Below are positions 274 through 32,110 of a stretch of DNA of 36,558 bases, piece by piece; positions within the stretch are counted from its first letter, which is position 1; each line of letters begins with the position of its first letter. Origin of the DNA: a virus. Taxonomy: Duplodnaviria > Heunggongvirae > Uroviricota > Caudoviricetes. The notes under the pieces are model-generated. The model did no database searches, was not told where the DNA came from, and saw only the letters and a list, made by a program, of their open reading frames with translations. The stretch is from positions 1-36,558 of the IMG/VR virus record IMGVR_UViG_2778261416_000006. The stretch is one strand, 5' to 3'. The position numbers were made by a program, and so were the translations under genes.

Positions 274-1112
274 CTGAAAGGCCCCTTCACGGTCAATGTG
301 TGGATCATTAGCATTGGCCCTGCGACTACTGATTTTAACATCTAGGGAAACGTAGCTGATGTTTGGCTTCGATAAGATTCTGTAGCACCGCCTCAGTGGG
401 GTTGTCAGAACATTCCGCTGCCGCCTTAAGAATATCGCTTACTAGAGATGAAACTGGTTGATTGTAATCCCGGTCGACCGTTACTCTATGTTTATCCGGA
501 TAATTTTGGCGTACACATTAAGTGAAGAAAACTTCAAAGTGATTTGAAACAGATGTTGTATTCACTGGCTCATTTACATTAACTTGAGTGTTGTTCAGCA
601 CATGTTGAAACGCAGCTGTAAGGAAGATGATACAGCCAAGATGTATCCTTCATTATGGGGATTGGCGCGATGACCACCACGGCTTAGCCCGATTGATTAT
701 TTGGAAATTGATTAGAATGCATAATCTGGGCTGAGCTCACTTAAAGTCTCTAATGTTTGACTTGGAGATTTGGGGGGCAGTGGCTTTCAGTTTTGTTAAC
801 TCTAACATCTGGTTTACGTTCCTTTTGGAACAAGAAGCAGAGGTCTGCTAAGTAATGGTTGTACTGCTTGTGATAGGTATGACTGCATGTTCAGCGAGCA
901 AGAATGGCTTAAAAGTTCTGTTACTGAGCACCCCATGAAGTTAGAACGATGTCATAACGTGCACGTAACCGTTGAACTGTTCTCTTACAGATAATCTCTA
1001 CATAGCTATTATTGCTTAGGCGGTAGCTATGTAGATGGTTTTTGTAATATTATATTAAAAGTTCATACAGCGACTATAGCATCATTGCGAAAAATATCAG
1101 GAGGTGAGTTTA

Positions 1113-2567
1113 ATGTTACGAAAAAGCAAACTTACAGAGATATATAAAAGGTTTGGTTTTACTGAAGAAAATACAGGTAACGAAAGTATTGCTGTATATT
1201 CTATTAAAACAGGGCACTACCATAACGCGGACATACTTCCACTAAATAATGAGGTTAATGTAAATCAAACCTTTGAAGAATATAGGCAGTTAGGTTATGC
1301 ATGTCAAATTAAAAAATATCAGTCTTATGAAGAAGCACATAAGGAATTATTTAATGGCTTCTTTAGCGTCGATTCAACTAAAGAAAGGTTGATTAAAGAT
1401 TATAATACTTTCACAGATTCAATTGTAAAAATTCACTCACCTACTGCAACTTATTCCTACATAAATTCAAAATATTACTTAAATGGTGTTATTGGCGAAG
1501 CTAATGTTGTTACGGAAATATTAGAGAGAATACAACATAGGCGTCCAATTCTGTTTTTGATTGAGGCTGCAGCCGGTTTTGGAAAGACTTGCACGGCGTA
1601 TGAATTATTGAGGGAGATTATAGTTAACAATATAGGGAAAATACCATTATTTTCAGAACTATCAAGGAATAGGCAAGCAAAAATATTCAGGTATGTACTA
1701 TTAGATGAAATTGATAGAAGTTTTCCTTTGTTAAGCTCAGCCTTAGTAAGGAATGAAATAAGAGCAGGAAATGTACCAGTTATACTTGACGGGTTTGATG
1801 AACTATTGCATGAAAGTACAAACGGAATTGAAAATAATTATGAAAAAACAGAGCCAATGCTGGAAATAATAAGTGAGCTTCTAACTGATAGTGCAAAAGT
1901 GGTTTTGACAACTCGAAGAACAGCTATATTTGACGGAGATGAATTCCATCAGTGGATAGCATCACATCAAGAAGATTTTGATGTGATAAGAATAAGAATT
2001 CATGAACCACAAATTGAAGACTGGCTTCCAGGTCAACGTTTAGATGAAATTTCATCGACAGGATTTCCTCTTAACAAATTATCAAACCCTGTACTGCTAT
2101 CATTTCTAAGATGCATCGACGACACCGACTTTAATAAAGTTATAAGCGACCCAACAACTATAGTGAGGAAGTATTTTGATTCAATGCTTGAGCGAGAAAG
2201 AAAAAGACAAGATTTATTAATGTCTATTGAAGATCAATATACTATACTAAAAATAATAGCTGACGACATGGTCGAGGGTAACTACACATCTGAGTCTAGA
2301 GAGTATATATCGTTAGTCATAACTGAAAAGAATCAACAACTCTTGGAGGCTACAAGAAAGCTTTATACTGTAGATGAAAGACCAACTACTGACGAATTAG
2401 TTAATAAATTAGCATCGCATGCTCTATTAGATCGGTCAGGCTCAGAAAACCAAGGTATTGGATTTGTTAATGAATTTGTTCTTGGTAATTTTGTTTCTGA
2501 AAATATTATTAATGATAAGTCAAATGAATGGATTGGTGATAAACGTTTTATAGAACCAGCAGTGTAA
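1113..2567 (+). CDS. NACHT-type STAND P-loop NTPase
   Basis: Walker A-like AAAGFGKT, Walker B VPVILDGFDELL (hhhhDGxDE) about 70 aa later, then VVLTTRR matching the NACHT hhhT[ST]R motif. AGGAGG at 1098-1103 precedes ATG 1113; track start 1104 is a GTG. AT-rich codon usage. Confidence 0.65.
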   Translation: MLRKSKLTEIYKRFGFTEENTGNESIAVYSIKTGHYHNADILPLNNEVNVNQTFEEYRQLGYACQIKKYQSYEEAHKELFNGFFSVDSTKERLIKDYNTFTDSIVKIHSPTATYSYINSKYYLNGVIGEANVVTEILERIQHRRPILFLIEAAAGFGKTCTAYELLREIIVNNIGKIPLFSELSRNRQAKIFRYVLLDEIDRSFPLLSSALVRNEIRAGNVPVILDGFDELLHESTNGIENNYEKTEPMLEIISELLTDSAKVVLTTRRTAIFDGDEFHQWIASHQEDFDVIRIRIHEPQIEDWLPGQRLDEISSTGFPLNKLSNPVLLSFLRCIDDTDFNKVISDPTTIVRKYFDSMLERERKRQDLLMSIEDQYTILKIIADDMVEGNYTSESREYISLVITEKNQQLLEATRKLYTVDERPTTDELVNKLASHALLDRSGSENQGIGFVNEFVLGNFVSENIINDKSNEWIGDKRFIEPAV

Positions 2568-2573
2568 TCTTAT

Positions 2574-3218
2574 ATGCCGAGGATCGATGATGAAAAAGAA
2601 TTACTTTGGCATAGCTTAGAGTTTGCTTTATATTTTATGTCAGGTAATGATAAAATCCTTTATAGTCATTTGCTTATAGGAAAAGTTCCATTAGATTTAA
2701 AAAATGATAGTGTTGAGCAATTGTCTATATCAAAACTTTCTTTAGGCGATATAAATATAATACATGATACTATCTTTGTTGATTGTTCGTTTTTTAGCAG
2801 CATATTTACCTGTGGTAATTATAAAAACGTTACATTCGTGAACTGTTCTTTTATAGATTGTAGTTTTAACGAATTAAGTGGTAGGGAAGATATTTATTTT
2901 TTGGGATGTGAATGTGACAATGATGCTATTAATAAAAAATCTGTCGAGATAAACAGTGAAAATGATCACGATATTACAGATTGTGATATTTACATCTTAG
3001 AGAAGTTCTGTCCCAGAGGGAGTGTTAGCTATCATAAGCATCGGCCTATAAAAGGCTTATGTTCTAACAACAATCAATTTCAGTTAAGTGAAATACTCCA
3101 TTCTTTAGATAAATTGAGGAAAGACGGTCTTTTACTTACGCCAGACAAGCGTTCGTTCCTTGAACTTAACATGGCAAGAATATCAGAGATTAAAGCAATT
3201 CTTGGGAGGAATTTCTGA
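2574..3218 (+). CDS. pentapeptide-repeat-like protein
   Basis: Seven consecutive 5-residue units with an aromatic at the same position (FVDCS FFSSI FTCGN YKNVT FVNCS FIDCS FNELS). Starts 7 nt after upstream stop; its stop overlaps the next start (TGATG at 3216-3220). Confidence 0.55.
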   Translation: MPRIDDEKELLWHSLEFALYFMSGNDKILYSHLLIGKVPLDLKNDSVEQLSISKLSLGDINIIHDTIFVDCSFFSSIFTCGNYKNVTFVNCSFIDCSFNELSGREDIYFLGCECDNDAINKKSVEINSENDHDITDCDIYILEKFCPRGSVSYHKHRPIKGLCSNNNQFQLSEILHSLDKLRKDGLLLTPDKRSFLELNMARISEIKAILGRNF

Positions 3219-4123
3219 TGTATAACGGGAATGAATTGCGAATTATTCAAAGTTTGCAAAAAGATATAGAAGATGAACTTAATCGTATTGGATTACTTTA
3301 TCGTTTTTTTTCGAGGACAAAATCAGAAAGCTCAATAATTAAGAAATATGAAAAAGAGCCTAATAAATACTCAGAGGATGGTAAAAAAATTCAAGACTTA
3401 TTTGGGGTTAGGATAATATTATATTTTCCTGATGATTTATTTATTGCTCAAAAAACACTGGAGAAATTATTCGAAATTGAATCTAAAACCGTAGACGAAA
3501 CCACGGCTAATCTCTTTGCGGCAACTCGATGCAATTACGTCTTTAAGTTACCAGAAGTATTATCAAATGATAGTGTCTTATTAAAGAAATATTCTTATAT
3601 TGATACTACTTTTGAAGTCCAATTTAGAACTATTTTATCTGAAGGATGGCATGAAGTTGAGCATGATCTACGCTATAAGTGCAAAGAGGATTGGGTTGAG
3701 CATAATGACCTTAGTCGCGCGCTGAATGGAATTTACGCCTCTTTGGAAACATCTGATTGGGGAATAATGAAGTTATTTGAGGATTTAGCATATAGAAATT
3801 ATAAGTCAAGCGCATGGTCCGCTATGCTAAGAAATAAATTAAGATTGAGAATGGACGATAAGCTTGATGAAAAGATAATTTCAATAATTAATGAGAAAGA
3901 GCTTGGTAAAAAGTTTTATAGAATTGACAGAGATCGTTTGTTATCGTTAATGTTAGATTATAATATTGATATACCAATTAATCTTAATAATATAATTTAC
4001 CTTTGTAATTATTTTTTCATAAAATCTACGGAGCTTCAGGATATAGCCCCTGCTTTAATAATGAAAAAGCTTACAGATGCTGATGAAAAATTCAATAAAA
4101 ATACTATTTTAGCATCTAAATAA
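3218..4123 (+). CDS. RelA/SpoT-like nucleotidyltransferase (synthetase fold), possible toxSAS-type effector
   Basis: N-terminal motifs typical of RelA/SpoT synthetase domain: SRTKSESSIIKKYEK (RxKxxxSxxxK), DLFGVRIILYFPDD (DxxGxRii), EVQFRTILSEGWHEVEHDLRYK (ExQxRT...W...H...YK). C-terminal 130 aa unassigned. Translationally coupled to upstream gene. Confidence 0.65.
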   Translation: MYNGNELRIIQSLQKDIEDELNRIGLLYRFFSRTKSESSIIKKYEKEPNKYSEDGKKIQDLFGVRIILYFPDDLFIAQKTLEKLFEIESKTVDETTANLFAATRCNYVFKLPEVLSNDSVLLKKYSYIDTTFEVQFRTILSEGWHEVEHDLRYKCKEDWVEHNDLSRALNGIYASLETSDWGIMKLFEDLAYRNYKSSAWSAMLRNKLRLRMDDKLDEKIISIINEKELGKKFYRIDRDRLLSLMLDYNIDIPINLNNIIYLCNYFFIKSTELQDIAPALIMKKLTDADEKFNKNTILASK

Positions 4124-4140
4124 TAACTATCTCCGGCTAT

Positions 4141-4170
4141 TAAGTAGGCCTTGTATTTTAGGCCTACTTA
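4141..4170. terminator. perfect 10-bp inverted repeat (taagtaggcc / ggcctactta) with 10-nt loop, putative operon terminator
   Basis: Read directly; lies 18 nt after the stop of the RelA/SpoT-like gene. No clean T-tract follows, so it could be a protein-binding palindrome instead. Confidence 0.35.
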
Positions 4171-5175
4171 AAAAGTTTCATTATGTGAAGTGATGATGAT
4201 AGCAAATCTGATATCTTTATGGTTGGATGCGAGAAAATATTTTTATCCCGACACAACAACTGGTAATGATAGAAAATTTAAACCCAAAAATGCTACAGTA
4301 GCCTCAGCTCACAAACGGAGTATAAAGTGGCGGTTACTCTTTAGTGGGAATACTGTAGATAGTTGATAAACTGGGCTGGATTTTCTTTTCTAACCGAAGG
4401 GAAGAAAAGCAAGGGGAACCCAAAGAAACAAGCGCAGCGGCTTCGTAGGGTTAGCCCTTGCTTCTTTTATAATTGGCATTATTCATTCAAGAACAATAGG
4501 ATCTTCGCTTGTACAAGCGAAGCTATAATAAAAAATCAATTAATTATTTTAAAAGTATTAAGCAAGAGCCTATTGACATTCGTAAAATAAAAGTTATTTT
4601 TAATGTATGCCATAAATAAAAAGTTTTATGTCATATGTATCCTGCACTATGTGCAGTTAATGTGCCACTTGTCCCATATATGGGAATATTGGAAAGGTTA
4701 CTTTGTTTTGAAGTAGCCTTTCGTCCTTCAATATTCACGATTACTTATTGCTATTACCAAGTCCAGTCGAATCGAAGAACATCTTTTATCTGAAACGACT
4801 CCTAATACCAGGTTGAAGCCACAATATCTCTCGCATAAGTAGACCAAAGAAAAATTATGATATTAACTATGTGATTTTTTTTAGTGTTAAGTTGAATAAT
4901 TATATACTGGAGAGTTTTCTGTACACTACCAATTGCTGGTTCATCTGTTCTGCCGCTGATGTTTCTGACTAATCTCCCGGTGACACAGAACTGTCCCTCT
5001 CTACCAGCCTTTATTCGACTCAATGTCCGGCTGCTGATACGCAGTTATCCCTTCGTATCAATGACTGACTCTTAAACGCAATGCTTTGGTTGCTGGCGTA
5101 TCTGACAGCTTCTTCGGCGTGAAGGTCGTTGTGTAAGTATACTTCTTGGTTTATTTAGGCTATATAAAACCATGA

Positions 5176-6072
5176 CTATGACTGGCTGTTTTCAGTAAGA
5201 GTCTTATCATCCAAAGAATTTATTCTAGAAATTCTTTTTAACTCATTAAGATAATCAACCTCGTTTTCTAAGAACCAATGAAGAACTTTAGAGTTGCCAA
5301 GTAATTTATTAATATATGACTGGATTATAACGAATTTCAACATATCTGAACCATACTCGGTTTGAAGTTTTTTCGTTTCTTCCGAAGTTGTTGCCATTTC
5401 TTGTTCCAGACGAAGTATGGTTTTTTTTATGTCCTTTTTATAGGGAGTGTTTTTCCCTTTATTTACTATCATCGATGACGGTGTTGCATCCAAGATGCTC
5501 ATTGCAAATTTTTTACTATAATTATCAAAATTAATCATTGTACCGACTGCTTCAATTTGACGAATTGGCTTCATTTTCCTCAAAACGTCAAATGTAGCCT
5601 TAGGTATAGGTTTATCAGAAAGTTTCGCAATTACACTTGGATCTATGCCGTTCATCACATTAGCTTTATCTTTTATGGCATCAACAGATATGCCCAAAGC
5701 AGCACTAAGTTTTTCAATTGATACTTTTGCCAGAGACTTAATTATCATTCTATGTTCTTCAACTACATTTATATGATTCACTTGTTTGTTAGGAGTGAAA
5801 GCATCATCTATGCTCGAAAGTATACATGGAGCTTTTTCTATATCTAAGTCTTTTAAAGCCTCAACCCTTAAATGGCCATCAAGTATCTTAGTGACATCTT
5901 TATCTTTGTCATAGAATACTATTATTGGTTCAATAATACCCAAGCTTTCGATAGAGGTAACTATTTGATGATATTTATGGCTTCGCTTTACGTTTTCTAA
6001 TAATTCCTTAGATGGAATTAACTTATTAGTTTCCAGGTAAATAAAATTTTTGCCAAAACGTATCTGAATCAT
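5176..6072 (-). CDS. ParB/sulfiredoxin-fold protein
   Basis: N-terminal ParB-like region with ILDGHLRVEAL (GxxRxxA-type box). ATG at 6072-6070; 4-nt overlap with upstream gene. AT-rich. Confidence 0.55.
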   Translation of the reverse strand: MIQIRFGKNFIYLETNKLIPSKELLENVKRSHKYHQIVTSIESLGIIEPIIVFYDKDKDVTKILDGHLRVEALKDLDIEKAPCILSSIDDAFTPNKQVNHINVVEEHRMIIKSLAKVSIEKLSAALGISVDAIKDKANVMNGIDPSVIAKLSDKPIPKATFDVLRKMKPIRQIEAVGTMINFDNYSKKFAMSILDATPSSMIVNKGKNTPYKKDIKKTILRLEQEMATTSEETKKLQTEYGSDMLKFVIIQSYINKLLGNSKVLHWFLENEVDYLNELKRISRINSLDDKTLTENSQS

Positions 6073-6965
6073 TTTGATACCTCTTTGTTTACTGGGTTTA
6101 ATATCTGAGATGGTAGTTCTGAAAGATTCTCTTGTTCAAGTATATTTTGAAAGCTTTTATTCATCATTATGATGTTAAAAATCTCATTTATTATTAGTAG
6201 ATTGGTTTTTATAAATTTCGAGTTGTTATAAACAGATTTATGTTCAGCGATACTATTTTCATAAAGCTCAATCAACTCCTCTGCAGTCATCCTTTTTGAT
6301 GGTTTGTGATAATAAAATCCGGCTGCTTTTGCACCTTTATTCCCAACTGTTCTTTGATTTAGAATGTATTTTATCTTTATAATGTCCCGACTTTTTATTA
6401 ATTTTTTATCATATGCTTCGGTAAGAATATCTTGTGCTTCCTCAGTTTCACATCTTGCAAATTGCACTGCGAGATACAGAGGCAAATTACCCCGTTCGAC
6501 TGCTGAGAGAAGTTTATGCTCTCCCTTATCAAGAAGCATATTAATACTGCTCACCCAGTTCGATGAATATCCAGTAATCTCACTTATTTCGGAGTCTGAA
6601 AGTCCTCTGATTTTCATGTCTTTAATCACCTGTAATAACTCATTAGAACGTGGTCTTCTCCTTGCAATGTTTTCAACTAAACTCATAACGTAAGCATCTT
6701 CTTCTGATACATCTCTTATAATTGCTGGAATAATAGTTTCACCTAATGCAACAAGAGCCTCTATTCTCCCTTGACCACAAATTAAAGCATATTTGAAATC
6801 GTCTTCATCAATAGCTCTTACGCTTATAGGCTTGCTTAATCCTCTTTTTTTTATGCTTTCCTTTATTTCTTCATGCACTACCTTATTTCTTGTTCGTGGG
6901 TTAAGAAATTTTATTTTTGCAATCTCAATTTGAATTATTGGGAATTCATTTTTTTCAGGCAGCAT
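6069..6965 (-). CDS. ParB-like protein with HTH
   Basis: ParB box-like CGQGRIEAL and LVENIARRRPR, followed by helix-turn-helix-like GLSDSEISEITGYSSNWVSSI. ATG at 6965-6963; overlaps recombinase gene end. Confidence 0.6.
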   Translation of the reverse strand: MLPEKNEFPIIQIEIAKIKFLNPRTRNKVVHEEIKESIKKRGLSKPISVRAIDEDDFKYALICGQGRIEALVALGETIIPAIIRDVSEEDAYVMSLVENIARRRPRSNELLQVIKDMKIRGLSDSEISEITGYSSNWVSSINMLLDKGEHKLLSAVERGNLPLYLAVQFARCETEEAQDILTEAYDKKLIKSRDIIKIKYILNQRTVGNKGAKAAGFYYHKPSKRMTAEELIELYENSIAEHKSVYNNSKFIKTNLLIINEIFNIIMMNKSFQNILEQENLSELPSQILNPVNKEVSK

Positions 6966-8511
6966 ATAGTTCCCTCACTTTCATGCGAGTAATAATTTGT
7001 AGAAATTTATCAAGATTATCAAATCTATAGAGATCTAACCGAATGTTGTTTGTTTCCATCATACACATTTTACTATATTCGTTTTCAATCTTTGGTATGA
7101 TATAAAAATCAAGAGGTGAAATATTTTGTGAATTCATTCGTATAACAATTGTTATGTCTGCTTTCTGTGAGTTATCAAACCGGACTTTCCATCTAAGTTT
7201 ACCTGATTTCATATGTATGCATTTAGTAACAAGGACGGAAATTAAAAACTCATCATTGATGTAAAGCATTGGGTAATATTTATACTCGTCTATATGACAG
7301 TTACTTTTTAATATTTCGCCCTTAAAATCCTCAATTATCTCTGAGTAAAATGATCTTAGTGCTTCATTTATTTGGAGATAGCTGTAATCATGTTCTGGCT
7401 TATAACCAATCAAAGTATATGCTCTTAAAAGACCACCAAATCGGGTTCTATAAACAGAAGATGAAGGGCCTGTATCATCTTCATCAATGATAAAGCCTGA
7501 TAGTTTTCCATTAGATTCTAATTTTTCTTTTAGCTTTTCTAATAGATCTTCATTAGTCAAATGAATGGATCGGAGCTGAATTATTTCTTGAGCTTTATTA
7601 TATTTTTTCTTTGAAATAATTGGTTTATATGCCTTGTCACATCTAATCCATTCATGTTTGGGGTTTTTTACAAGCTTACTTTTTAGTTTAGATGAGGTTT
7701 TGTTATATATGTTGTTTCCAATATATTTTTCATTTGTCAAAATTTGATGTATTTTTGCACGAGTCCATGATGTTCCATTTTCTGCAGGTATGCTCTGTTC
7801 ATTTAATCTCTCAGCAATAATGAATTCTGGGACGTTACTATCTATAAAGAGATCATAGATTCTATTTACAATTTTTATTTCATTTTTTGGTCCCGGAATT
7901 AATATTACCCTATCTGTTTGAATACTCTTTCTTTTGCGGAAATTCAATATTTCTTTAGCTATGCCATTTTCGTCTACTAAAAGACGTCTCAGCCCATAAC
8001 CAGCCATACCGCCTTGATGATAACCAAGCTTTATTAAATTTACTTGCCCTATAAATACCTTTTCAGATAGATTCCTGCTGTGATATGCAGCACTTGATCT
8101 TTTTATATTCAGTATAACAGAGGACTCTAAAGGGAAATCTTTAGTGGGTATAGGTTCGGAACAATATATAAGATCTACACCATTTCTTTCAAATAGAAAG
8201 GAATAATATGCAGCTTCATCACTATTTTGAAAACGACCAAAACGGCTCACATCATAAAATAATACAGCCTGTATATCTATTTTCTTTTGTTCTACATCGC
8301 TAAGTAACTGCTGCAAAGAATGCCTGCCTACGATACTGACTCCGCTCTTACCTGCATCATCGTAGGTATAAGCGATTTCCATATTGTTCTTTTCAGCATA
8401 ATCTTTGATATATTCAGACTGATTATGTAAAGAATATTGCTGATGGTCGGTAGACATCCTCAAGTACTGTGCGACCCTAACTCTATGATTTTTTTCATTT
8501 CCGCTAGCCAT
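6955..8511 (-). CDS. large serine recombinase
   Basis: N-terminal resolvase/invertase catalytic motifs: VAQYLRMSTDHQ (catalytic Ser), YDDAGKSG, LFYDVSRFGR. Length 518 aa fits the large serine recombinase class. Track start 8517 is TTG; ATG at 8511 is preceded by GAGG. Confidence 0.75.
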   Translation of the reverse strand: MASGNEKNHRVRVAQYLRMSTDHQQYSLHNQSEYIKDYAEKNNMEIAYTYDDAGKSGVSIVGRHSLQQLLSDVEQKKIDIQAVLFYDVSRFGRFQNSDEAAYYSFLFERNGVDLIYCSEPIPTKDFPLESSVILNIKRSSAAYHSRNLSEKVFIGQVNLIKLGYHQGGMAGYGLRRLLVDENGIAKEILNFRKRKSIQTDRVILIPGPKNEIKIVNRIYDLFIDSNVPEFIIAERLNEQSIPAENGTSWTRAKIHQILTNEKYIGNNIYNKTSSKLKSKLVKNPKHEWIRCDKAYKPIISKKKYNKAQEIIQLRSIHLTNEDLLEKLKEKLESNGKLSGFIIDEDDTGPSSSVYRTRFGGLLRAYTLIGYKPEHDYSYLQINEALRSFYSEIIEDFKGEILKSNCHIDEYKYYPMLYINDEFLISVLVTKCIHMKSGKLRWKVRFDNSQKADITIVIRMNSQNISPLDFYIIPKIENEYSKMCMMETNNIRLDLYRFDNLDKFLQIITRMKVRELYAA

Positions 8512-8793
8512 GCACAAAACCTCATGGATGATTCAATACAATGTAGAGGATAAAATTGATCAAATTTTAACCGAATTCAACTGTTTTATCATTGATTAGA
8601 GCGAATTTGGTAGTTCTTCGAGGTGTATGATAATCGAGAAGAGATGTGAATTATTTAGCTGATATGACCGACAGCTTTCGTTATGTGGCCTCAAGGTACC
8701 CATTTGTAAATGGCTATGCTTAGTCCACATAGGTTAATGGTGTGATCATTAATTCTTCAAATAAATCAAGATAGTTAACCCATCATGGAAGAG

Positions 8794-10023
8794 TTATGCG
8801 GCAATAACTTTGTATTTTTGAGACGAAACATAGTCACTCCACCATTGCATGAGAACCACACGTTCTGTGAGATACTCTGCACGATTGTAGGCTGCAATTA
8901 TTTCATCTTTTTTCGAGTGGGCAAGGGCGGCTTCTAAGACATCAGTTCTAAACTTGCCACACTCCTCAGCCGCCGTTCTAGCGATTGATCGCATACCATG
9001 AGCTACAAGCTCACCTCCGAAGCCCATACGGATTATAGCCGCATTAGCTGTTTGTTCATGCATGTGATTGAGTGGAGCTTTGATACTGGGAAAAACCCAC
9101 TCTCTATGCCCGCTGATGGCTTTCATTGAATCCAAGACTCGCAAAGATTCTTTGCTCAGTGGAACTTTGTGAGGCTTCTTCATTTTCATAAACTCCGCCG
9201 GGATGTTCCACATGCTGGTTTCTATATCAATATCTGACCATCTTGTGCGAACAGCTTCACCAGGGCGAACCCATGTGAGAAGTTGCCACTCAATCAGTAG
9301 CCTTGTTTCTAAACGGATAGAAGCATTGTTTAGAGCAACCAGGAAGCGGGGGAGTTCGGAAGGGGGTAATGCTGGCATATTCTGTTTTTTTGGCTTGCTG
9401 AACCGTTGCCCCAGGTTGTCAGCCGGATTGAATTCTATGAGTTCTTCTGTTGCTGCATAGCGGAAAATTTCATTCAGGCGGGATATGACGCGGCGAAGTG
9501 TTTCAAGGACACCTCGTTTTTCTATGGGGTCTAAATGCTGTTTAAGCATTTTAGGGCGAATCTCCTTAATGGGGGTATCACCCAACGTTGGAAAGATATT
9601 TCTCTCTAGGCTTCGCCAGATGTCGTTAGCATGATCCTGGGAGATGCCTGACGTTTTGACTTTCTCATCAAGCCACTTCTTGGCTACTGCTTGAAATGTA
9701 TGTTCCGTTGCATCCTTAAGGGCATTGGCTTTGTGGGTGTTATGAACTTGTGGGTCTATACCATTTGCAAGCAACGACAAGTACTCATCACGTAAAGCTC
9801 GTGCCTTCGCAAGTGTAAGGTGAGGATAGGTTCCTAAGCTCACCTTAGTTCGCTTTTTGGTCACAGGCACTGCATATCTGAAATACCAATTTTTCTTTCC
9901 TCCCTTCGCTAAGGGGGCGATTCGCAGGAGCAAACCATCGCCGTCAAAAAGGTTAACCTCTTTCTCGGCAGGTTTGGTGCTTTTGATTTCAGTGTCAGTG
10001 AGCTTCTTAGCGATTTTTGCCAT
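8794..10023 (-). CDS. P4-type tyrosine integrase (IntA/CP4-57-like)
   Basis: N-terminus MAKIAKKLTDTEIK and overall pattern resemble E. coli IntA as I recall it. C-terminal HGMRSIARTAA (HxxR) and AYNRAEYLTERVVLMQWW. Start placed at ATG 10023 rather than track start 10167. Confidence 0.8.
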   Translation of the reverse strand: MAKIAKKLTDTEIKSTKPAEKEVNLFDGDGLLLRIAPLAKGGKKNWYFRYAVPVTKKRTKVSLGTYPHLTLAKARALRDEYLSLLANGIDPQVHNTHKANALKDATEHTFQAVAKKWLDEKVKTSGISQDHANDIWRSLERNIFPTLGDTPIKEIRPKMLKQHLDPIEKRGVLETLRRVISRLNEIFRYAATEELIEFNPADNLGQRFSKPKKQNMPALPPSELPRFLVALNNASIRLETRLLIEWQLLTWVRPGEAVRTRWSDIDIETSMWNIPAEFMKMKKPHKVPLSKESLRVLDSMKAISGHREWVFPSIKAPLNHMHEQTANAAIIRMGFGGELVAHGMRSIARTAAEECGKFRTDVLEAALAHSKKDEIIAAYNRAEYLTERVVLMQWWSDYVSSQKYKVIAA

Positions 10024-10189
10024 GTTTGGGACCCTCATGTTTTGGACCCTTTGTGTTGGGTCCCAAAAAGGGTGCCATAACGAGTAGATTCTAGCAATTC
10101 TCGGTAGACTACTATAGACGTAAAAAAGCCCGCAAGGCTGGTTCCATGCGGGCTTGATAGACTTCACTGAACTTCAATATATCAAAAAT

Positions 10190-11324: not shown

Positions 11325-11894
11325 ATGAACCAGTGCACACAGTGGTTGGGGTATCATGGCACCAGTGTTTTATGTGCTAATTCAATCATTAATACAAATT
11401 TTAATGTCAGTAGACAAGAAAATGATTGGCTTGGTACCGGAGCCTATTTTTTCATTGAGTCGCCGGGATTGTTGGCCCCAGAAGAAAAAGCGGCTCAATG
11501 GGCTAACATTAGGGCTAGTAATGCGAGACCTAACTATACTAATCTAGCAGTGTTAGAAGCTACCATTGAAGTTGAGCAGTATCTTGACTTAGACAATGAT
11601 GAGCACATAGCCGCTCTCAACAAAGTGAGAGAGGTTTACATGGAAATCATGAAGTCTGAGGGTAAGAAACCAACTGGTAACAGATTGTTTGACAAATGCT
11701 GTTTTTGTAACTATGTAATGCATGAGCATGGTATTGACGCCCTGATACGTAAAGAGTATATCAAAACTACAAGAGAGGAGCTTGATTATGGTTTTGAAGG
11801 GGGAGTTCCTAACTGCAGAGTCTTATGCGTTAAAGACCCTAAAGCGAGTGTTAAGTCCATACGATTCGCGGTCGAGAGAAGGAGAGTACGATGA
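11325..11894 (+). CDS. putative ADP-ribosyltransferase-fold (H-Y-E class, PARP/DarT-like) toxin candidate
   Basis: YHGTSVLCANSIINTNF followed by WLGTGAYFF resembles the HG[ST]...GxGxYF signature of H-Y-E ADP-ribosyltransferases; assignment by eye only. AT-rich; stop overlaps next start (ATGA). Confidence 0.45.
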   Translation: MNQCTQWLGYHGTSVLCANSIINTNFNVSRQENDWLGTGAYFFIESPGLLAPEEKAAQWANIRASNARPNYTNLAVLEATIEVEQYLDLDNDEHIAALNKVREVYMEIMKSEGKKPTGNRLFDKCCFCNYVMHEHGIDALIRKEYIKTTREELDYGFEGGVPNCRVLCVKDPKASVKSIRFAVERRRVR

Positions 11895-12256
11895 ACATCA
11901 ATTTATGGCTCGAAAAGACCTTGGACTCTATAAGGTCAACTGATCCGAAAGCTCTCATGGTGAGGATGGAGCGGTATGGATTGATTGAAGATGATGTTAA
12001 TAAAAATAAGGAAATGTCTCATTCTGGTTATGAATATACAGTTTGTGAGGATCTTCCTAGAGAGGTTCCTTTTGCGTCCTATTTTTTCATTGATAACGCT
12101 TCGTATCATGAAGAATCTATAAATGCTTTATCCGTGCAGTTGACTTTCACAACAGCGCCGCGTGAAGCGGCGTTTTCATTGGCTTCACGTCCAGTGTTTT
12201 ATACATCAGAGATTGCTTGTGGAAATTCTCTGGATCATATTGCCCAGGCTGCTTAA
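11891..12256 (+). CDS. hypothetical protein, candidate antitoxin or adaptor
   Basis: ATG 11891 preceded by AAGGAG; coupled to flanking genes. No motif recognised. Confidence 0.45.
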   Translation: MNINLWLEKTLDSIRSTDPKALMVRMERYGLIEDDVNKNKEMSHSGYEYTVCEDLPREVPFASYFFIDNASYHEESINALSVQLTFTTAPREAAFSLASRPVFYTSEIACGNSLDHIAQAA

Positions 12257-12257
12257 T

Positions 12258-12644
12258 ATGAAATTTCAATTAAATAAGAATCAAATAGAAAAGTTAAGTA
12301 TTGAACATTTTATAAATGAATCATCTATTAAAAACAGTTTTTCATTTTCACATACATGCAAGTATGATGAAGAAAAGAATAATGAGTTTATCATTTCTTT
12401 TAAATTTGAACTTACATCTGACAATGGTTTTAAACTTATTTTTACGCATAATTTCTTTTTTGAATGCGATGAACCAATTACAGAAGAGTTTTTACAGTCA
12501 CATTACACATCAGTGAACGCTCCTGCTATTGCCTATCCTTATGTAAGAGCATTTGTGGCAACATTACTTTTAAACGCAGGCTTAGAGTCTGTTTTATTGC
12601 CTGCTGTTAATTTTGTTGAGCATGCTAAATCGCAAGATAAATGA
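12258..12644 (+). CDS. SecB-like chaperone
   Basis: C-terminal AIAYPYVRAFVATLLLNAGLESVLLPAVNF parallels SecB [30 protein letters not shown]. ATG sits 1 nt after upstream stop; the track ORF 12162-12644 is treated as an N-terminal over-extension. Confidence 0.6.
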   Translation: MKFQLNKNQIEKLSIEHFINESSIKNSFSFSHTCKYDEEKNNEFIISFKFELTSDNGFKLIFTHNFFFECDEPITEEFLQSHYTSVNAPAIAYPYVRAFVATLLLNAGLESVLLPAVNFVEHAKSQDK

Positions 12645-12649: not shown

Positions 12650-12674
12650 ATGAGAGCAAATAAATTGCTCTCAT
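12650..12674. terminator. bidirectional hairpin terminator between convergent genes
   Basis: 9-bp stem atgagagca / tgctctcat with 7-nt loop, flanked by A-run upstream and T-rich downstream; overlaps integrase stop codon. Confidence 0.5.
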
Positions 12675-13840
12675 TTATACATGATATCATTTATGGTATT
12701 TTCGTTATCGTACTCTTTTAAATATCTTCCATAATGCCTAAATAGCATTTCTGGTCCTTTATGTCCCATTTGTCCAGCAAGCCAAAATAGGTTCGCCCCT
12801 TGACTGATATGGCGAGTAGCGAATGTGTGTCTCGTTTGATATGGATTACGGTATCTGATTCCTGCTTTTCTCAATATTGGCACCCATGCTTTTTTCCTAA
12901 TTGCATCAGCACTTGCCCAGGGTTTATTGGTCTTTGGATCTTCAAAGACAGTAGCATTCTTTATGAATGTAAATGGCTTCTGGTTTATCAACGCCAACAT
13001 TGCTTCTTCAGTCAGTTCAACTTTACGGGTACCGGCTTTTGTCTTTGTTCCTTTGATAACTCCGACAACACTTGCGCTCTGAACATGGGCTGTTTTTCCA
13101 ACAAAGTCGATATCATGCCATCGTAGGGCACATAATTCAGAACTACGCAGGCCTGTATGTATGGCGAACCGGAACAGATTTTCCCATTGTTTGTTTCCGG
13201 CTGCTGCTAGTAATGCATCAACTTCTGCTGGTGATAGCGGATCAACTAAGTAGCTGCTTTCTGCTTCTGACTTATCACTTTGGTAGCGCGAAGCTGTTAC
13301 TAACGATACGGGGTTAATTTGAAGTACCCCATCGGTCACGGCTTCATCAAGTGCTGACCGCAGGAAAGATAACTGGTTGCGAATGGTTTTTAAGGTCGTT
13401 TTCTGGCTTTGAATCCACGCTTTCAGGGTTGCTGGTGTTAATTCACTTGCAGGGCAAATGTGAAGTGAGGCTAACGCACTACGGCATTTTTTATAACCAC
13501 CGATCGTGGATGGTGAAAGTTTCCTCGTTTCGCAGATTTCAAGATATTCGTCTAGGTACATTTTTACCGTTTTGCCAGCGGCAGCATTACCAAAAATTTT
13601 CAAACGAGCAGAACGGGGAAAATATTCTGCATAAATGAATGTTCCCCTTTCGATCTTATTATGGATTTCGCCGAGTGTACGCTCGGCGTATTTAATGTTC
13701 TTTGGTGTTACTTCCAGATTGGAAAGCGGCTCACGACATCTAACTCCTTTGTAGGTGAAAGTTATATTGATCGTTTCTCCTTGGCGGTGTTTCCTGATTG
13801 TTACGCCGCGCGGTAGTTTGAGCAGTTTTGTCTGGCCCAT
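12671..13840 (-). CDS. lambda-type tyrosine integrase
   Basis: C-terminal catalytic region RHTFATRHISQG (HxxR) and MLFRHYGRYL (Tyr); N-terminal arm-binding-like region. ATG at 13840. Confidence 0.85.
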   Translation of the reverse strand: MGQTKLLKLPRGVTIRKHRQGETINITFTYKGVRCREPLSNLEVTPKNIKYAERTLGEIHNKIERGTFIYAEYFPRSARLKIFGNAAAGKTVKMYLDEYLEICETRKLSPSTIGGYKKCRSALASLHICPASELTPATLKAWIQSQKTTLKTIRNQLSFLRSALDEAVTDGVLQINPVSLVTASRYQSDKSEAESSYLVDPLSPAEVDALLAAAGNKQWENLFRFAIHTGLRSSELCALRWHDIDFVGKTAHVQSASVVGVIKGTKTKAGTRKVELTEEAMLALINQKPFTFIKNATVFEDPKTNKPWASADAIRKKAWVPILRKAGIRYRNPYQTRHTFATRHISQGANLFWLAGQMGHKGPEMLFRHYGRYLKEYDNENTINDIMYK

Positions 13841-18796: not shown

Positions 18797-19629
18797 ACAG
18801 TTTAACGGCAAATAACCGTTTGTCGCAACAGCTGGTGGTCAGCGTCGCTGAACACCTGTTGTTACGGCATGAATGCAGATTACCAAATCACCTGGCTGTA
18901 AGTAACCACAGAGAACTTTATCTGACTGTGGGGGGCGAGTTGTGCAGGAACTTAACCGCTGGTTTCGTGACGGAAGAGGGCTTTATGTCCATGTTATTCG
19001 TTGGGAGCCAGAAACACAGCGCGTTATCTATCTTCGCAAAGACTACCCGCATGAGTGCTTTAGTCCTTTGTGGAAATTCAGGCGTGATTTTGTTGAGTGT
19101 GAAGGACCACCAGCACATTGATTCTGCCATTCCGGGACGTTACACTGTTCAGGCACCTTATAAAGCGGGTGCCGGGATTGGCGTCCTGGAATTGCATACG
19201 GCGACAATTGGCGCGTTAGCGTCTTTTTTGTTGCTACAACTCAGCTATACCCAAATTATGGTGGGCTGGGTGGGGGCACCGAAAGGTGCGCCGGTTTCCG
19301 TATGCGCCGGTTACGCCAACCCTGCTCAGTTCACCACCAGCGAAATTGGCGTTTCCGGTGGTGGAAGTTATCCATTGCATACGGAGGCTGCCATCATGGC
19401 TACTGTCCCAGCCCTCTCTCGTCTGAATGATGACGACTTACATAAACTCAGTTATGTAACAACTGCACTACGTGCTCTGCGCAAGGTAACTCTTTCGGAT
19501 CCGCAGGCGCATCAGGTTCTGGTAGAAACCCTTCTTAACTTGCAGGCTGAACGTATTCGTCTGGCGGATAAGGCTAATTTTCATATTCACCGTCTCCTGA
19601 ATATCAGCGGAGGGCATCGTCATGCTTAA
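18793..19629 (+). CDS. hypothetical phage protein
   Basis: 278-aa ORF with ATG overlapping upstream stop (ATGA) and GGAG upstream; composition is unusual (Leu/Ser/Ala/His-rich), so coding status is uncertain. Confidence 0.35.
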   Translation: MNSLTANNRLSQQLVVSVAEHLLLRHECRLPNHLAVSNHRELYLTVGGELCRNLTAGFVTEEGFMSMLFVGSQKHSALSIFAKTTRMSALVLCGNSGVILLSVKDHQHIDSAIPGRYTVQAPYKAGAGIGVLELHTATIGALASFLLLQLSYTQIMVGWVGAPKGAPVSVCAGYANPAQFTTSEIGVSGGGSYPLHTEAAIMATVPALSRLNDDDLHKLSYVTTALRALRKVTLSDPQAHQVLVETLLNLQAERIRLADKANFHIHRLLNISGGHRHA

Positions 19630-27064: not shown

Positions 27065-28438
27065 ATGGATTTTTCTCATATTTCTTCGTACCTATCCTCT
27101 GATTCTCGAAGTGGCTGGCGTGAAAAGCTACTTGAAGCATCATTTCGAGGTGTGCCGTTTAAGGTTGAAGAAGAAAGTGCGGGAACCGGTCGCCGTGTGG
27201 AAACACATGAATACCCGAACCGCGACAAGCCATATACCGAAGATCTGGGAAAAGTCACTTTCCGCCCGTCCATCACAGCTTATGTGGTGGGCGATGACTG
27301 CTTTGACCAGCGCGATCGCCTGATTGACGCGCTGAATAAACCTGGTCCCGGCACGCTTGTCCATCCGACATACGGTGAGATGAAAGTCTGTGTTGACGGG
27401 GAAGTTCGGGTCAGCACATCGAAAAGTGAAGGGCGTATTGTCCGCTTTGACCTGAAGTTTGTCGAAGCAGGAGAACTCTCTTACCCCACATCAGGTGCGG
27501 CGACGGCGCAGACGCTGATGTCATCCTGTTCTGCACTGGATGACTGCATCAGTGACAGCTTCAGCGGTTTCAGTATCGATGGTGTGGCGGATTTCGTGCA
27601 GAACGACGTTATCGGTAATGCCAGCATAATGCTGGGGTATGTTTCTGATGCGATGAAAGTGGTGGATTCTGCCGTATCGGATGCCGCCAGGCTGTTGCAG
27701 GGGGATATCTCGGTACTTCTGCCGCCGCCATCGTCAGGCAAAAATTTCGTTGAGCAGGTGCAGAAAATGTGGCGTACCGGGAAACGCCTTTATGGTAACG
27801 CCAGCGACCTGGTCATCATGATCAAAACGCTTTCCGGTGTCAGCCTCGGCAGCGATCTGCAACCGCGCGGCGTCTGGAAAACGGACAGTAAAACCACCGC
27901 CACGGCGACGCAGCAGCGTAACGTGGTTGCCAGCACACTTCGTACGACCGCAATCAGCGAAGCGGCGTATGCCGTCACCCGATTGCCTGCGCCAACAACT
28001 TCCGCGGTGATGCAGAATTCCGCAGTGGGGCAGGCAACAACACCCGCGCAGAGCACTGGCTGGCCTTCCGTCACGCATCCGGCACTGAACAATGCACCGG
28101 CGGTGAAAAACACGGTTGACCTGCCGACGTGGGAAGAACTGACTGACATTCGCGACACACTGAATACGGCAATTGATAAGGAGTTGTCCCGTACAACCAG
28201 CGATGCGCTGTTTCTGGCGCTGCGCCGGGTGAAAGAAGATCTGAATGCGGATATCAACACGCGCCTTGAACAGTCTGCACGGATCATTCAGCGCACACCG
28301 GATGAGGTTTTACCCGCGCTGGTGCTGGCGGCGACCTGGTTTGATAACGCGGCGCGTGACGCGGACATTATCCGGCGTAATGCCATTACGCATCCCGGCT
28401 TTGTGCCGGTGATCCCTCTGAAGGTGCCAGTGCAATGA
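27065..28438 (+). CDS. Mu N-like DNA circulation / tail protein
   Basis: Size, position ahead of baseplate genes and sequence character resemble Mu gpN-family proteins in e14/Mu-like tails; GAGGTGA upstream. Confidence 0.6.
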   Translation: MDFSHISSYLSSDSRSGWREKLLEASFRGVPFKVEEESAGTGRRVETHEYPNRDKPYTEDLGKVTFRPSITAYVVGDDCFDQRDRLIDALNKPGPGTLVHPTYGEMKVCVDGEVRVSTSKSEGRIVRFDLKFVEAGELSYPTSGAATAQTLMSSCSALDDCISDSFSGFSIDGVADFVQNDVIGNASIMLGYVSDAMKVVDSAVSDAARLLQGDISVLLPPPSSGKNFVEQVQKMWRTGKRLYGNASDLVIMIKTLSGVSLGSDLQPRGVWKTDSKTTATATQQRNVVASTLRTTAISEAAYAVTRLPAPTTSAVMQNSAVGQATTPAQSTGWPSVTHPALNNAPAVKNTVDLPTWEELTDIRDTLNTAIDKELSRTTSDALFLALRRVKEDLNADINTRLEQSARIIQRTPDEVLPALVLAATWFDNAARDADIIRRNAITHPGFVPVIPLKVPVQ

Positions 28439-29514
28439 ACGACAATGTCACGCTACGGGTAAATGGCCGGGAGTGGAATGGCTGGACATCGGTGCGCATC
28501 GGTGCCGGTATTGAACGGCTGGCGCGGGATTTCAGTGTGGAGATCACCCGCCAGTGGCCGGGAGATGAGGGTATTACCACGCTTCAGCCGCGCATTAAAA
28601 ACGGTTCAAAAGTGGAGGTGCTGATTGGTGATGAGCTGGTGATCACCGGCTGGGTGGAGGCGACGCCCGTTCGTTACGATTCCCGTTCGGTCAGCACCGG
28701 TATTGCCGGACGCAGTCTGACCGCTGACCTGATTGACTGTGCAGCCGAACCGACACAGTTTAACGGACGATCGCTGGTACAGATTGCGCAGGCGCTTGCT
28801 GCGCCTTTCAGCATTGAGGTGGTGAACAACGGTGCGCCGTCGGGTGTTATTCCTGATGTTCAGCCTGATCACGGTGAAACGGTGATTGAGGTAATCAACA
28901 AAATACTCGGTCAGCAGCAGGCACTGGCTTACGACGACCCGCACGGCAGGCTGGTGATTGGCGGTATTGGCTCAACGCGGGCACATACTGCGCTGGTACT
29001 CGGGGAAAACATCCTTTCCTGCGATACGGAGAAGAGTATCCGGGAGCGGTTTTCTGTTTACCAGGTGGCGGGGCAGCGTGCCGGAAACGACGATGATTTC
29101 GGTGAGGCCACCACCACCGCGCTGCGGGCCCGCACAGAGGACGCATTTATTGCCCGTTACCGTCCGATGTATATCAGGCAGACAGGGCAGGCTACGGGGG
29201 CAGGCTGTATTGCCCGTGCGGACTTTGAAGCCCGACAACGGGCGGCGCGGACGGATGAAACCACCTATGTGGTGCAGGGCTGGCGACAGGGTAACGGTAC
29301 GCTGTGGCAGCCCAACCAGCGGGTGATTGTCTTTGATCCGGTCTGTGGTTTCGACAATACCGAACTGCTTGTTTCGGAAGTCACGTTTACTCAGGACCAG
29401 AACGGCACCCTGACGGAAATCCGTGTCGGCCCGCCTGATGCTTATCTGCCTGAACCCGAAGCCCCCGGCGCGCGGAAAAAGAAAAAAGCCAGAGTACAGG
29501 AGGACCCGTTCTGA
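28435..29514 (+). CDS. Mu P-like baseplate hub protein
   Basis: Synteny (N, P, V, W, J) and recalled similarity; start overlaps upstream stop. Confidence 0.6.
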   Translation: MNDNVTLRVNGREWNGWTSVRIGAGIERLARDFSVEITRQWPGDEGITTLQPRIKNGSKVEVLIGDELVITGWVEATPVRYDSRSVSTGIAGRSLTADLIDCAAEPTQFNGRSLVQIAQALAAPFSIEVVNNGAPSGVIPDVQPDHGETVIEVINKILGQQQALAYDDPHGRLVIGGIGSTRAHTALVLGENILSCDTEKSIRERFSVYQVAGQRAGNDDDFGEATTTALRARTEDAFIARYRPMYIRQTGQATGAGCIARADFEARQRAARTDETTYVVQGWRQGNGTLWQPNQRVIVFDPVCGFDNTELLVSEVTFTQDQNGTLTEIRVGPPDAYLPEPEAPGARKKKKARVQEDPF

Positions 29515-30062
29515 TGAGGACGATTGAAGCCATGCAGCGACAACTCCTCGGCCTGATTGGGCGGGCCGTGGTGAAAAGCATCAGTGCCGCCACGAAATGT
29601 CAGACCGTGGATGTGTCCCTGATTGCCGGTGAACCCAAAGCCGGGGTTGAACATCTTGAACCCTACGGTTTTACCGCAAGGGCAAACAGCGGTGCGGAAG
29701 CGGTGGTGTTGTTTCCGGATGGCGACCGTTCTCATGCGGTGGTTGTTACGGTGTCGGACCGGCGCTACCGCCTGAAAGGGCTGCAGACGGGTGAGGTGGC
29801 GGTCTATGACGATCAGGGGCAGTCCGTGACGCTGACCCGGGAGGGGATCGTGGTGGACGGTGCAGGTAAAACGATCACGTTTCGTAATTCACCTAAAGCA
29901 CGTTTTGAAATGGACCTGGAAGTGACAGGACAGGTGAAAGACCTGTGCGACTCCGGCGGCACCACCATGTCAGCGATGCGGCTTGCCTATAACGGGCATC
30001 GTCACAGAGAGAACGGTCAGGGCAGTAACACCGACAAACCTGATAAAGCGATGGAGGCATGA
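29514..30062 (+). CDS. baseplate spike/assembly protein V-like (Mu gp45-like)
   Basis: Synteny; TGATG-coupled start. Confidence 0.55.
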   Translation: MRTIEAMQRQLLGLIGRAVVKSISAATKCQTVDVSLIAGEPKAGVEHLEPYGFTARANSGAEAVVLFPDGDRSHAVVVTVSDRRYRLKGLQTGEVAVYDDQGQSVTLTREGIVVDGAGKTITFRNSPKARFEMDLEVTGQVKDLCDSGGTTMSAMRLAYNGHRHRENGQGSNTDKPDKAMEA

Positions 30063-30487
30063 TGGAACTGTGGCTGACGGTGAACGGTAAACGCACCTGC
30101 GCCAGCGCACCGATGGATCCGCTGACCCGTGCCGTGGTGATTTCCCTGTTCACCTGGCGGCGGGCTGAACCTGATGACAATGCCGACGTCCCGATGGGAT
30201 GGTGGGGGGATACCTGGCCTGCGGTACAGAATGACCGTTACGGCTCCCGACTGTGGCTGCTTCAGCGCAGCAAACTGACCAATCAGCTGGTGCAGACGGT
30301 AAGGGGATATATCCGCGAATGCCTGCAATGGATGATTGATGACGGCGTGGTGTCCCGTATTGATCTGGATATCCGCCGCACCGGGATTAATGAGCTGGGG
30401 AACAGTATCACCCTCTGGCGTCGTGACGGACCGGTAATGATTTCTTTTGATGATCTGTGGAGTGCGATAACGCATGGCGGACAGTGA
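30059..30487 (+). CDS. Mu gp46-like baseplate protein
   Basis: Synteny and size (142 aa). Confidence 0.55.
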   Translation: MMELWLTVNGKRTCASAPMDPLTRAVVISLFTWRRAEPDDNADVPMGWWGDTWPAVQNDRYGSRLWLLQRSKLTNQLVQTVRGYIRECLQWMIDDGVVSRIDLDIRRTGINELGNSITLWRRDGPVMISFDDLWSAITHGGQ

Positions 30488-32107: not shown

Positions 32108-32110
32108 TCC

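Follow-up and report, generated by a model that had tools for sequence, protein, structure and literature searches.

A 36,558-nt stretch of viral DNA (IMG/VR record IMGVR_UViG_2778261416_000006, positions 1–36,558; hereafter the window) carries at 3218–4123 a gene for a RelA/SpoT-fold protein, which is probably the enzymatic output subunit of a two-gene conflict system resembling NOD-like receptors (NLRs), of the bNACHT type and carried as cargo of an integrative element. The gene lies almost always directly 3′ of the gene for a NACHT sensor protein, so its product is most likely the killing or arresting arm of that sensor in a putative anti-phage system; and since the NACHT protein appears to lack an enzymatic effector of its own, the enzyme would be the only catalytic output of the pair. 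The enzyme gene and its product have the following features, given in window coordinates or enzyme residues.

3218–4123, + strand: intact gene for a RelA/SpoT-fold (small-alarmone-synthetase-like) protein, from the open reading frame (ORF), Pfam PF04607 and cluster identity.
3205–3220, + strand: GGAGG Shine-Dalgarno (3205–3209) and a start codon that overlaps the upstream stop (TGATG, 3216–3220), read directly from the sequence.
3218–3805, + strand: synthetase (pyrophosphokinase) fold, residues 1–196, from the structural model, Foldseek, hidden Markov model (HMM) alignments and residue counts in 74 members.
3806–4120, + strand: family-specific, basic, all-helical C-terminal domain, residues 197–301 (about 105 aa).
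Synthetase domain: donor motif R33-x-K35-x3-S39-x3-K43.
Synthetase domain: motifs D60-x2-G63-x-R65 and E133-x-Q135-x-R137-T138.
Synthetase domain: H149...Y153-K154.
Residues 93–106: acceptor (G-) loop, with F100-x-[PAV]-x-R104-x-N106 where GYxSxH is canonical.

The ORF on the + strand starts with ATG, encodes 301 aa and stops at 4121–4123; the Shine-Dalgarno lies 8 nt before the ATG, which shares one base with the stop codon (TGA) of the gene before it. An E. coli cluster of 325 members, named 'RelA/SpoT domain-containing protein' (WP_000282312.1 at the same gene position in the ETEC4073 record), matches the protein at 100% identity, and source annotations label the protein a GTP pyrophosphokinase. 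At E <= 0.001 it has 2808 homologues (clusters at 90% identity), which among the 120 listed are mostly 290–305 aa long. An earlier note on this DNA, made from the letters alone, had assigned the ORF to the RelA/SpoT fold, and this is confirmed by the ORF check, by the Pfam RelA_SpoT match (PF04607; residues 32–157 on profile positions 1–112 of 113, E 3.2e-15, 56.8 bits where the cut-off is 27) and by structural matches to RelP/RelQ.

Solved RelP/RelQ structures are matched by phmmer with the enzyme as query and by the family profile. An AlphaFold2 model of the full enzyme, with a 40-sequence alignment as input, has a mean predicted local distance difference test score (pLDDT) of 87.5 and a predicted template modelling score (pTM) of 0.82, and Foldseek aligns it with whole RelP/RelQ chains over 184–200 columns at probability 1.0, with a target-normalised TM-score of up to 0.71. 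RelP/RelQ (6EWZ, 6FGK, 5DEC) are thus the best matches in both structure and sequence, along whole chains that include the long C-terminal helix, but they share only 17–22% identity with the enzyme, have the GYxSxH motif and lack both the 105-aa tail and any linkage to NACHT. Because the model aligns with whole RelP/RelQ chains, the synthetase fold is predicted to extend to about residue 196, long helix 165–196 included, leaving only 197–301 as an extra domain. The earlier note had split the protein into about 170 residues of synthetase fold and about 130 unassigned residues; an unassigned tail indeed exists, but the boundary was some 25 residues off and the tail is about 105 aa. The best-conserved enzyme region of the family, 131–196 (65% mean pairwise identity), covers the long helix.

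The donor side of the active site is conserved throughout the family. In conservation counts over 74 diverse enzyme members from several phyla, R33, K35, S39, K43, D60, R65, E133, Q135, R137 and H149 are present in 74 of 74, K154 in 73 and G63 in 65 (Ala in the other 9). A check for missing catalytic residues, proposed in the earlier note as a way to refute the assignment, accordingly found none missing, ten being invariant and K154 nearly so. The pattern R33/K35/S39/K43/D60 is also that of FaRel2, whose donor site consists of R64, K66, S70 and K74 and whose Mg2+-binding residue is D90 (PMC11782079). Since the donor and catalytic residues are invariant and match the FaRel2 pattern, the enzyme is no dead homologue and possesses an intact ATP-donor and catalytic site.

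The pairing of the enzyme gene with a NACHT gene is obligate. Enzyme homologues of V. parahaemolyticus and P. aeruginosa (about 53% identity) follow a 707-aa NA-iREase2 gene that ends at, or overlaps, the enzyme start codon, in neighbourhoods that are otherwise unrelated and with genes on the 3′ side that differ between the species. An enzyme-seeded set of 80 genome loci, 79 of them evaluable (one is cut by a contig end), spans Gamma-, Beta- and Deltaproteobacteria, Campylobacterota, Bacteroidota, Firmicutes, Acholeplasma and Cyanobacteria, and in 77 of the 79 a NACHT homologue lies directly upstream on the same strand. A NACHT-seeded set of 80 metagenome loci, reaching down to 30% identity, contains 78 evaluable loci (two contigs end early), and the enzyme is directly downstream in all 78. 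Both directions together give adjacent NACHT and enzyme genes in 155 of 157 evaluable loci, so the enzyme does not behave as the autonomous, CapRel-like protein that the earlier note had considered. The exceptions, from Pseudomonas sp. NPDC087336 (L019) and a deltaproteobacterial metagenome-assembled genome (L040), have no NACHT gene within 5 kb and may be orphan or relic copies; their upstream genes encode a permease and a solute-binding protein, or are unrelated. No small antitoxin gene stands beside the enzyme in these loci, the only conserved neighbour being the NACHT gene of about 700 aa. The similar architecture in distant phyla implies horizontal transfer.

The upstream partner, a large multidomain protein, is broken in the window and has these features.

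1113–3218, + strand: partner gene encoding NA-iREase2, a NACHT NTPase and a variable C-terminus that contains pentapeptide repeats; the intact product (WP_000944877.1) has 701 aa, and the copy in the window is a pseudogene or split into two ORFs.
1113–1487, + strand: NA-iREase2, an inactive restriction-endonuclease fold, NACHT residues 1–125 (Pfam PF22723); candidate docking platform.
1488–2552, + strand: NTPase module followed by helical domains, NACHT residues 126–480, from invariant alignment columns.
2553–3215, + strand: putative sensor, NACHT residues 481–701, the most variable region of the pair, from identity comparison and repeat pattern.
2565–2567, + strand: premature stop TAA where CAA (Gln485) stands elsewhere, a C to T change at 2565, from the alignment and base comparison.

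Pfam PF22723 matches the N-terminus of the NACHT protein at E 8e-34. Among 76 homologues no Asp, Glu or Lys position of this domain is conserved at 70% or more, and within residues 1–100 only Y14, G15, G61, L79, F80, F83, F84 and Y97 reach 90%; judged from this alignment, the N-domain is catalytically dead. Used alone as a query, it finds 8 homologues, all of them fragments. The NTPase, in contrast, is well preserved: the Walker A motif EAxAGxGKT (residues 151–159; E151, A152, A154, G155, G157, K158 and T159) and the Walker B motif DGFDEL (D226–L231) are invariant in alignment A4, and the Walker motif columns are likewise invariant in the 76-sequence NACHT alignment, although the Pfam NACHT match itself is below threshold (19.1 versus 26.7 bits). 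Residues 481–701 have a mean pairwise identity of 24–30%, compared with 50% for the NTPase, and carry a Phe or Cys at every fifth position (F555, F560, F565, F575, C578, F580, C583), as in a pentapeptide-repeat beta-helix; Pfam Pentapeptide_4 matches the protein weakly. The protein thus has two features of a bNACHT, the Walker A and B motifs and the tripartite layout of N-domain, NTPase and variable C-terminus. As the enzyme tail (31% mean pairwise identity) is less variable than the NACHT C-terminus, the most variable, sensor-like region of the pair lies in the NACHT protein and not, as a CapRel-like reading of the earlier note would have it, in the enzyme itself.

ORFs 1104–2567 and 2574–3218 are one 701-aa gene broken by a nonsense mutation. 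ETEC4073 and dozens of other E. coli strains have here a single coding sequence, annotated by PGAP as 'NACHT domain-containing protein' (WP_000944877.1), and the window differs from ETEC4073 at 2 of 3301 bases, the C to T change at 2565 being one of the two. Each of the 60 complete E. coli genomes with the stretch around the stop differs from the window in it (best match 99.2% over 121 bases), which fits the C allele. The stop removes the C-terminal 217 residues of the NACHT protein, and the 484-aa truncated product is also found in GCA_002521955.1 and in an SRR3971774 assembly. We rejected an assembly error as the origin of the stop, because the truncated product occurs in a second, independently built assembly (which may be of the same isolate). 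An independent pentapeptide-repeat gene at 2574–3218 was likewise rejected, as this ORF shares its frame with the 3′ part of the single coding sequence, at 99.9% identity; it also has no Shine-Dalgarno before its ATG. The earlier note had placed the enzyme in an operon, which is borne out by the overlapping NACHT–enzyme pair, but the three genes it implied reduce to two, the upstream one being split by the stop at 2565. The apparent "three-gene operon" is thus an annotation lesson, a two-gene system with a broken sensor. With its sensor gene cut short, the system is probably not active in this strain, although its enzyme gene is intact.

Natural alleles bear on how the two proteins relate. In E. 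coli RM10410 (L175:1952–5393), IS2 sits inside the NACHT gene and ISVsa5 upstream of it, and the enzyme gene is 100% intact. Two independent NACHT-null alleles, the nonsense allele of the window and the IS2 allele of RM10410, therefore retain a 100% intact enzyme gene with its own Shine-Dalgarno. P13-6 (L173:4218–5122) is the converse case, with an intact NACHT gene and an enzyme gene split into ORFs of 91 and 126 aa, and in 22 of 76 pair-carrying genomes less than 80% of a 3.3-kb query (window 1000–4300) is covered in one place. That NACHT-null strains retain an intact enzyme gene speaks for a NACHT protein that activates the enzyme and does not neutralise it as an antitoxin would, and suggests that the enzyme lacks constitutive toxicity at native expression.

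The enzyme tail is distinct from known domains in both sequence and predicted structure. A separate model of residues 195–301 is all-helical (pLDDT 87.7), and the tail is basic, with a median isoelectric point (pI) of 9.3 versus 5.7 for the catalytic domain. Its conserved residues in the 74 members are W200, M203, R205, K207, R209, R211, K231, R238, P253 and N264, so that several Arg and Lys are invariant or nearly so at a mean pairwise identity of 31%. Residues 159–301 match no Pfam family at E up to 10, the tail profile finds nothing in the Protein Data Bank (PDB), and the best Foldseek hit of the tail model in the PDB, with the CapRel sensor domain included, reaches only E 4.7. Compared with the full enzyme model, the CapRel structures 7ztb and 9erv align over the synthetase domain only, long alignments having a root mean square deviation of about 19 Å; structure prediction and Foldseek, the comparison suggested in the earlier note, therefore lend no support to a CapRel-like sensor domain. 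Searched against 1.84 billion cluster representatives, the tail profile matches 273 proteins; among the 150 listed, the full-length ones carry the tail at about residues 195–290 of proteins of about 290–330 aa, and many shorter matches resemble fragments. By these matches the tail is found almost only in this enzyme family and is not a mobile adaptor. Promiscuous adaptor domains have been described for other NTPase conflict systems, and the tail, confined as it is to one enzyme family, is unlike them. Most likely it is an accessory domain that couples the enzyme to the NACHT protein, or that gates or extends the acceptor site; among its conceivable roles we would place NACHT docking or gating before binding of the acceptor (RNA or nucleotide), with CapRel-like phage sensing a distant third. 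One rare variant of the family, P0247 (673 aa), carries about 380 extra residues without a Pfam match.

Rare variants hint at the nature of the product. In P0216 (427 aa, L090:2439–3722), and likewise in the fragment P0185, a small-alarmone-hydrolase domain (HD_4) follows the tail within the usual NACHT context; these are two HD_4 fusions among five atypical-length tail matches checked by Pfam (150 listed of the 273 representatives). Small alarmone hydrolases neutralise all tested toxic small alarmone synthetases (toxSASs; PMC7229694). Because these variants fuse a hydrolase of the toxSAS-neutralising kind, they support, by analogy, a 3′-pyrophosphorylated product that would be harmful or worth reversing. 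The closest solved relative of the P0216 HD domain is the (p)ppApp hydrolase Aph1 (7SMG, E 1.5e-18), whose specificity residues are D24, R96, D116 and R119 (PMC10083569); in P0216 they are replaced by R, K, S and P, the first of which resembles guanine-binding Rel hydrolases. Since P0216 lacks the specificity residues of Aph1, we dropped the attempt to read the acceptor base from this hydrolase, and A cannot be told from G. The earlier note had held that the substrate is not readable from the sequence, with which we agree.

As the most likely mechanism, the variable pentapeptide-repeat C-terminus of the NACHT protein would sense an invader-derived cue, upon which the NACHT module, by analogy with STAND (signal-transduction ATPases that have numerous domains) and NLR proteins, would bind NTP and oligomerise. 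The dead nuclease-fold N-domain, or another surface of the NACHT protein, would then recruit or cluster the separately encoded enzyme, a recruiting role being proposed because the N-domain appears catalytically dead. The enzyme would move pyrophosphate from ATP to an acceptor 3′-OH, that of a purine nucleotide or of a tRNA CCA end, as toxSASs do, and the resulting arrest of growth or translation would abort the infection.

Several points weigh against this mechanism. Defence, toxicity, activity and physical interaction are all inferred for this enzyme family, and polar effects could also account for the tolerance of the enzyme gene in NACHT-null strains. Neither the enzyme nor the NACHT protein has a PADLOC model, and PADLOC and NCBIfam scans of the three window ORFs return no known defence-system model, the only matches being weak ones to PDC-S33, HalA and AbiGI. 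The tail is not common to other effector types, and in a mirror-tree (distance-matrix) test its partial correlation with the NACHT N-domain is r 0.03, a value that we weigh neither way on docking; raw correlations in the same test are 0.68–0.92 for every pair of enzyme tail and NACHT domain. The catalytic domain is acidic, as its median pI of 5.7 indicates, and its acceptor loop departs from the expected pattern, no canonical GYxSxH with a base-coordinating Tyr being conserved at residues 95–110 in the 74 members. Only F100, R104 and N106 of the loop are fixed, positions 103 and 105 vary, and the canonical Tyr register falls opposite T103, F100 or V108 in three HMM alignments, of which the strand predicted by the model at 105–110 favours T103; loop residues 98–100 are the sole part of the model with pLDDT below 50. 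In characterised toxSASs this Tyr is conserved and makes the contacts to the acceptor base, and the usual means of crippling RelA/SpoT homologue (RSH) enzymes is its Y-to-F replacement (PMC11782079). Because the Tyr is not conserved in the enzyme family, in contrast to characterised toxSASs, its acceptor site is unusual as far as the alignments tell, and with so remodelled a loop the enzyme may take another acceptor or catalyse poorly.

The loop gives substance to a reading in which the enzyme is a non-canonical transferase, its acceptor being neither a G or A nucleotide nor a tRNA CCA end, or in which it makes a signal and is not a toxin. The F-x-[PAV]-x-R-x-N motif in place of GYxSxH without a conserved Tyr, the low local confidence confined to residues 98–100, the acidic catalytic domain next to a basic tail, and a P0216 HD domain that fits neither the Aph1 (p)ppApp signature nor clearly another family all agree with it. 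However, the donor site is canonical throughout, the hydrolase in the fusion is a member of the HD_4 alarmone-hydrolase family, whose known substrates are 3′-pyrophosphorylated nucleotides and tRNA, and the loci hold no third gene able to read a signal, so we regard this reading as unlikely. We give equally little credence to the more specific proposal that the remodelled loop and the private basic tail direct pyrophosphorylation to a new acceptor class, neither a G or A alarmone precursor nor tRNA CCA; if true, it would be a new immune chemistry, widespread in bacteria as distant as Proteobacteria and Bacteroidota, with an echo in the RelA/SpoT–NLR fusions of fungi and protists. The enzyme could also be a fused toxin-antitoxin like CapRel, in which the tail autoinhibits and senses a phage protein while the NACHT gene is separate or auxiliary. 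An extra C-terminal domain does follow a toxSAS-like domain as in CapRel, the pTM of the full model suggests that the tail packs on the catalytic domain, L019 and L040 have enzyme genes without a NACHT neighbour, and the enzyme gene stays intact in NACHT-null strains. Yet the tail is unlike the CapRel pseudo-zinc-finger domain, or any solved structure, in fold and sequence, and the two genes are adjacent in nearly all loci whichever gene seeds the search; moreover, basic residues of the tail are invariant and its variability does not exceed that of the NACHT N-domain, the NACHT C-terminus being the most variable region, which makes this reading improbable.

An addiction module, with a constitutively toxic enzyme kept in check by the NACHT protein and set free on infection or on loss of the element, would agree with the overlapping bicistronic layout familiar from toxSAS toxin-antitoxin loci, with the location of the pair on a mobile element and with the finding that several E. 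coli genomes have the pair disrupted, a hint that it is costly. It is highly improbable, because viable strains carry natural alleles that destroy the NACHT gene and leave the enzyme gene and its own Shine-Dalgarno 100% intact, and one would hardly expect a simple antitoxin to be a STAND NTPase of 700 aa whose Walker motifs are invariant. The most improbable reading of all, a housekeeping or stress alarmone synthetase that an NTPase regulator tunes and that has no part in phage defence, might draw on the annotation as GTP pyrophosphokinase and on the non-toxic RelP/RelQ as closest solved relatives; its patchy presence (1.4% of complete E. coli genomes), its place as low-GC island cargo interchangeable with restriction-modification genes, a NACHT partner with a variable tail, and the horizontal transfer implied by similar architectures in distant phyla all argue otherwise. 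We therefore retain the two-gene, NLR-like conflict system as the preferred reading.

Relative to known systems, the pair would work like bNACHT and other STAND defence at the level of the system, and like a toxSAS at the level of the enzyme. Among toxSAS toxins, FaRel2 and PhRel2 pyrophosphorylate the tRNA 3′-CCA, whereas FaRel and Tas1-Apk make (p)ppApp. The overlapping bicistronic layout is shared with toxSAS toxin-antitoxin loci, and the rare hydrolase fusion mirrors toxSAS hydrolase antitoxins; however, the partner is an upstream 700-aa STAND NTPase instead of a small antitoxin, and the enzyme has an extra C-terminal domain. Since no small antitoxin is present, this is not a classical toxSAS toxin-antitoxin pair. 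CapRel(SJ46), a tRNA pyrophosphokinase (7ZTB, 9ERV), likewise combines a synthetase-fold effector with an extra C-terminal domain and is implicated in phage defence, and Foldseek finds the shared catalytic fold at E 9e-5. In CapRel, which works as a single gene, the C-terminal pseudo-zinc-finger domain serves as antitoxin and also as phage sensor; the helical tail of the present enzyme is unrelated to it, and the enzyme gene goes together with a distinct gene for a NACHT sensor. As neither a CapRel-like sensor domain nor, in 155 of 157 evaluable loci, a stand-alone gene was found, we do not class the enzyme as CapRel-type.

Kibby et al. list, in Table S1, a clade 15 with the architecture NA-iREase2+NACHT+Pentapeptide, which is exactly that of the partner protein; the clade-15 rows examined carry no bNACHT test designation. 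The same work names 'alarmone synthetases' among NACHT-associated effectors, and describes bNACHT01 and bNACHT25 as carrying the effector on the same polypeptide, bNACHT01 lying outside an operon. The present pair differs from these two, as far as that description goes, in that the N-domain is predicted to be dead and the enzyme is encoded by a separate, translationally overlapping gene. A protist fusion from Reticulomyxa (Tox-RelA+NACHT+Pentapeptide+beta-propeller) is catalogued in that work too, and fungal NLRs with RelA/SpoT N-domains are also described (PMC10197012). These eukaryotic NLRs combine RelA/SpoT, NACHT and pentapeptide parts as the present pair does, a likeness at the level of domains, but have the RelA/SpoT domain fused N-terminally, whereas here a protein of its own contains it, together with an accessory domain. 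Our literature searches found no paper that describes or tests the two-gene NACHT and RelA/SpoT family. The architecture is widespread and its acceptor site unusual, and the general logic was anticipated by earlier comparative genomics.

To our knowledge, toxic RelA/SpoT-fold enzymes have so far been toxins of toxin-antitoxin systems, secreted toxins or the self-sensing CapRel. The present locus joins an NLR-type sensor, whose N-domain appears dead, with a separately encoded alarmone-synthetase-like enzyme. If confirmed, it would show an NLR-type oligomer activating an enzyme supplied as a separate protein, would make the RelA/SpoT domains of fungal and protist NLRs, as yet unexplained, accessible through a tractable model in bacteria, and could reveal either a new acceptor or a new route by which (p)ppApp/(p)ppGpp synthesis or the poisoning of tRNA is triggered.

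The genomic setting is a defence island. The pair lies in a segment of the window with 32% GC, next to the backbone of an integrative element.

5176–6072 and 6069–6965, − strand: two ParB/RepB-like genes of the integrative-element backbone.
6955–8517, − strand: large serine recombinase.
8794–10167, − strand: P4-type tyrosine integrase.

On the same ParB–ParB–recombinase–integrase backbone, EC01440 has a type I restriction-modification system in the slot of the NACHT pair, and the next slot holds DarT/NADAR antitoxin in P13-6 and AAA-ATPase/RloB in EC01440; the slot of the NACHT pair therefore looks like a swappable defence-cargo slot on an integrative element. The pair occurs in 76 of 5426 complete E. 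coli genomes, always on the chromosome, is rare on plasmids and is found in none of 50,697 phage records.

In the window, the roughly 1 kb on the 3′ side of the enzyme gene (4124–5175) contains no ORF above 75 aa; a weak terminator-like hairpin lies at 4445–4461, and no Rfam family reaches its gathering score there. Further on, 11325–12644 (+ strand) encodes a 189-aa protein without a Pfam match followed by a SecB-like protein (PF02556, E 6e-6), a pair that could be toxin-antitoxin-chaperone-like and that occupies the slot holding DarT/NADAR in P13-6 and AAA-ATPase/RloB in EC01440. The remainder, 12671–36558, is a prophage with its integrase at 12671–13840 (− strand), Rfam matches to C4 antisense RNA (19254–19341) and isrK sRNA (19153–19229), a block of 58% GC at 27065–32700 with Mu-like DNA-circularisation and baseplate genes, and an RnlA/RNase LS toxin gene at 34615–35796.

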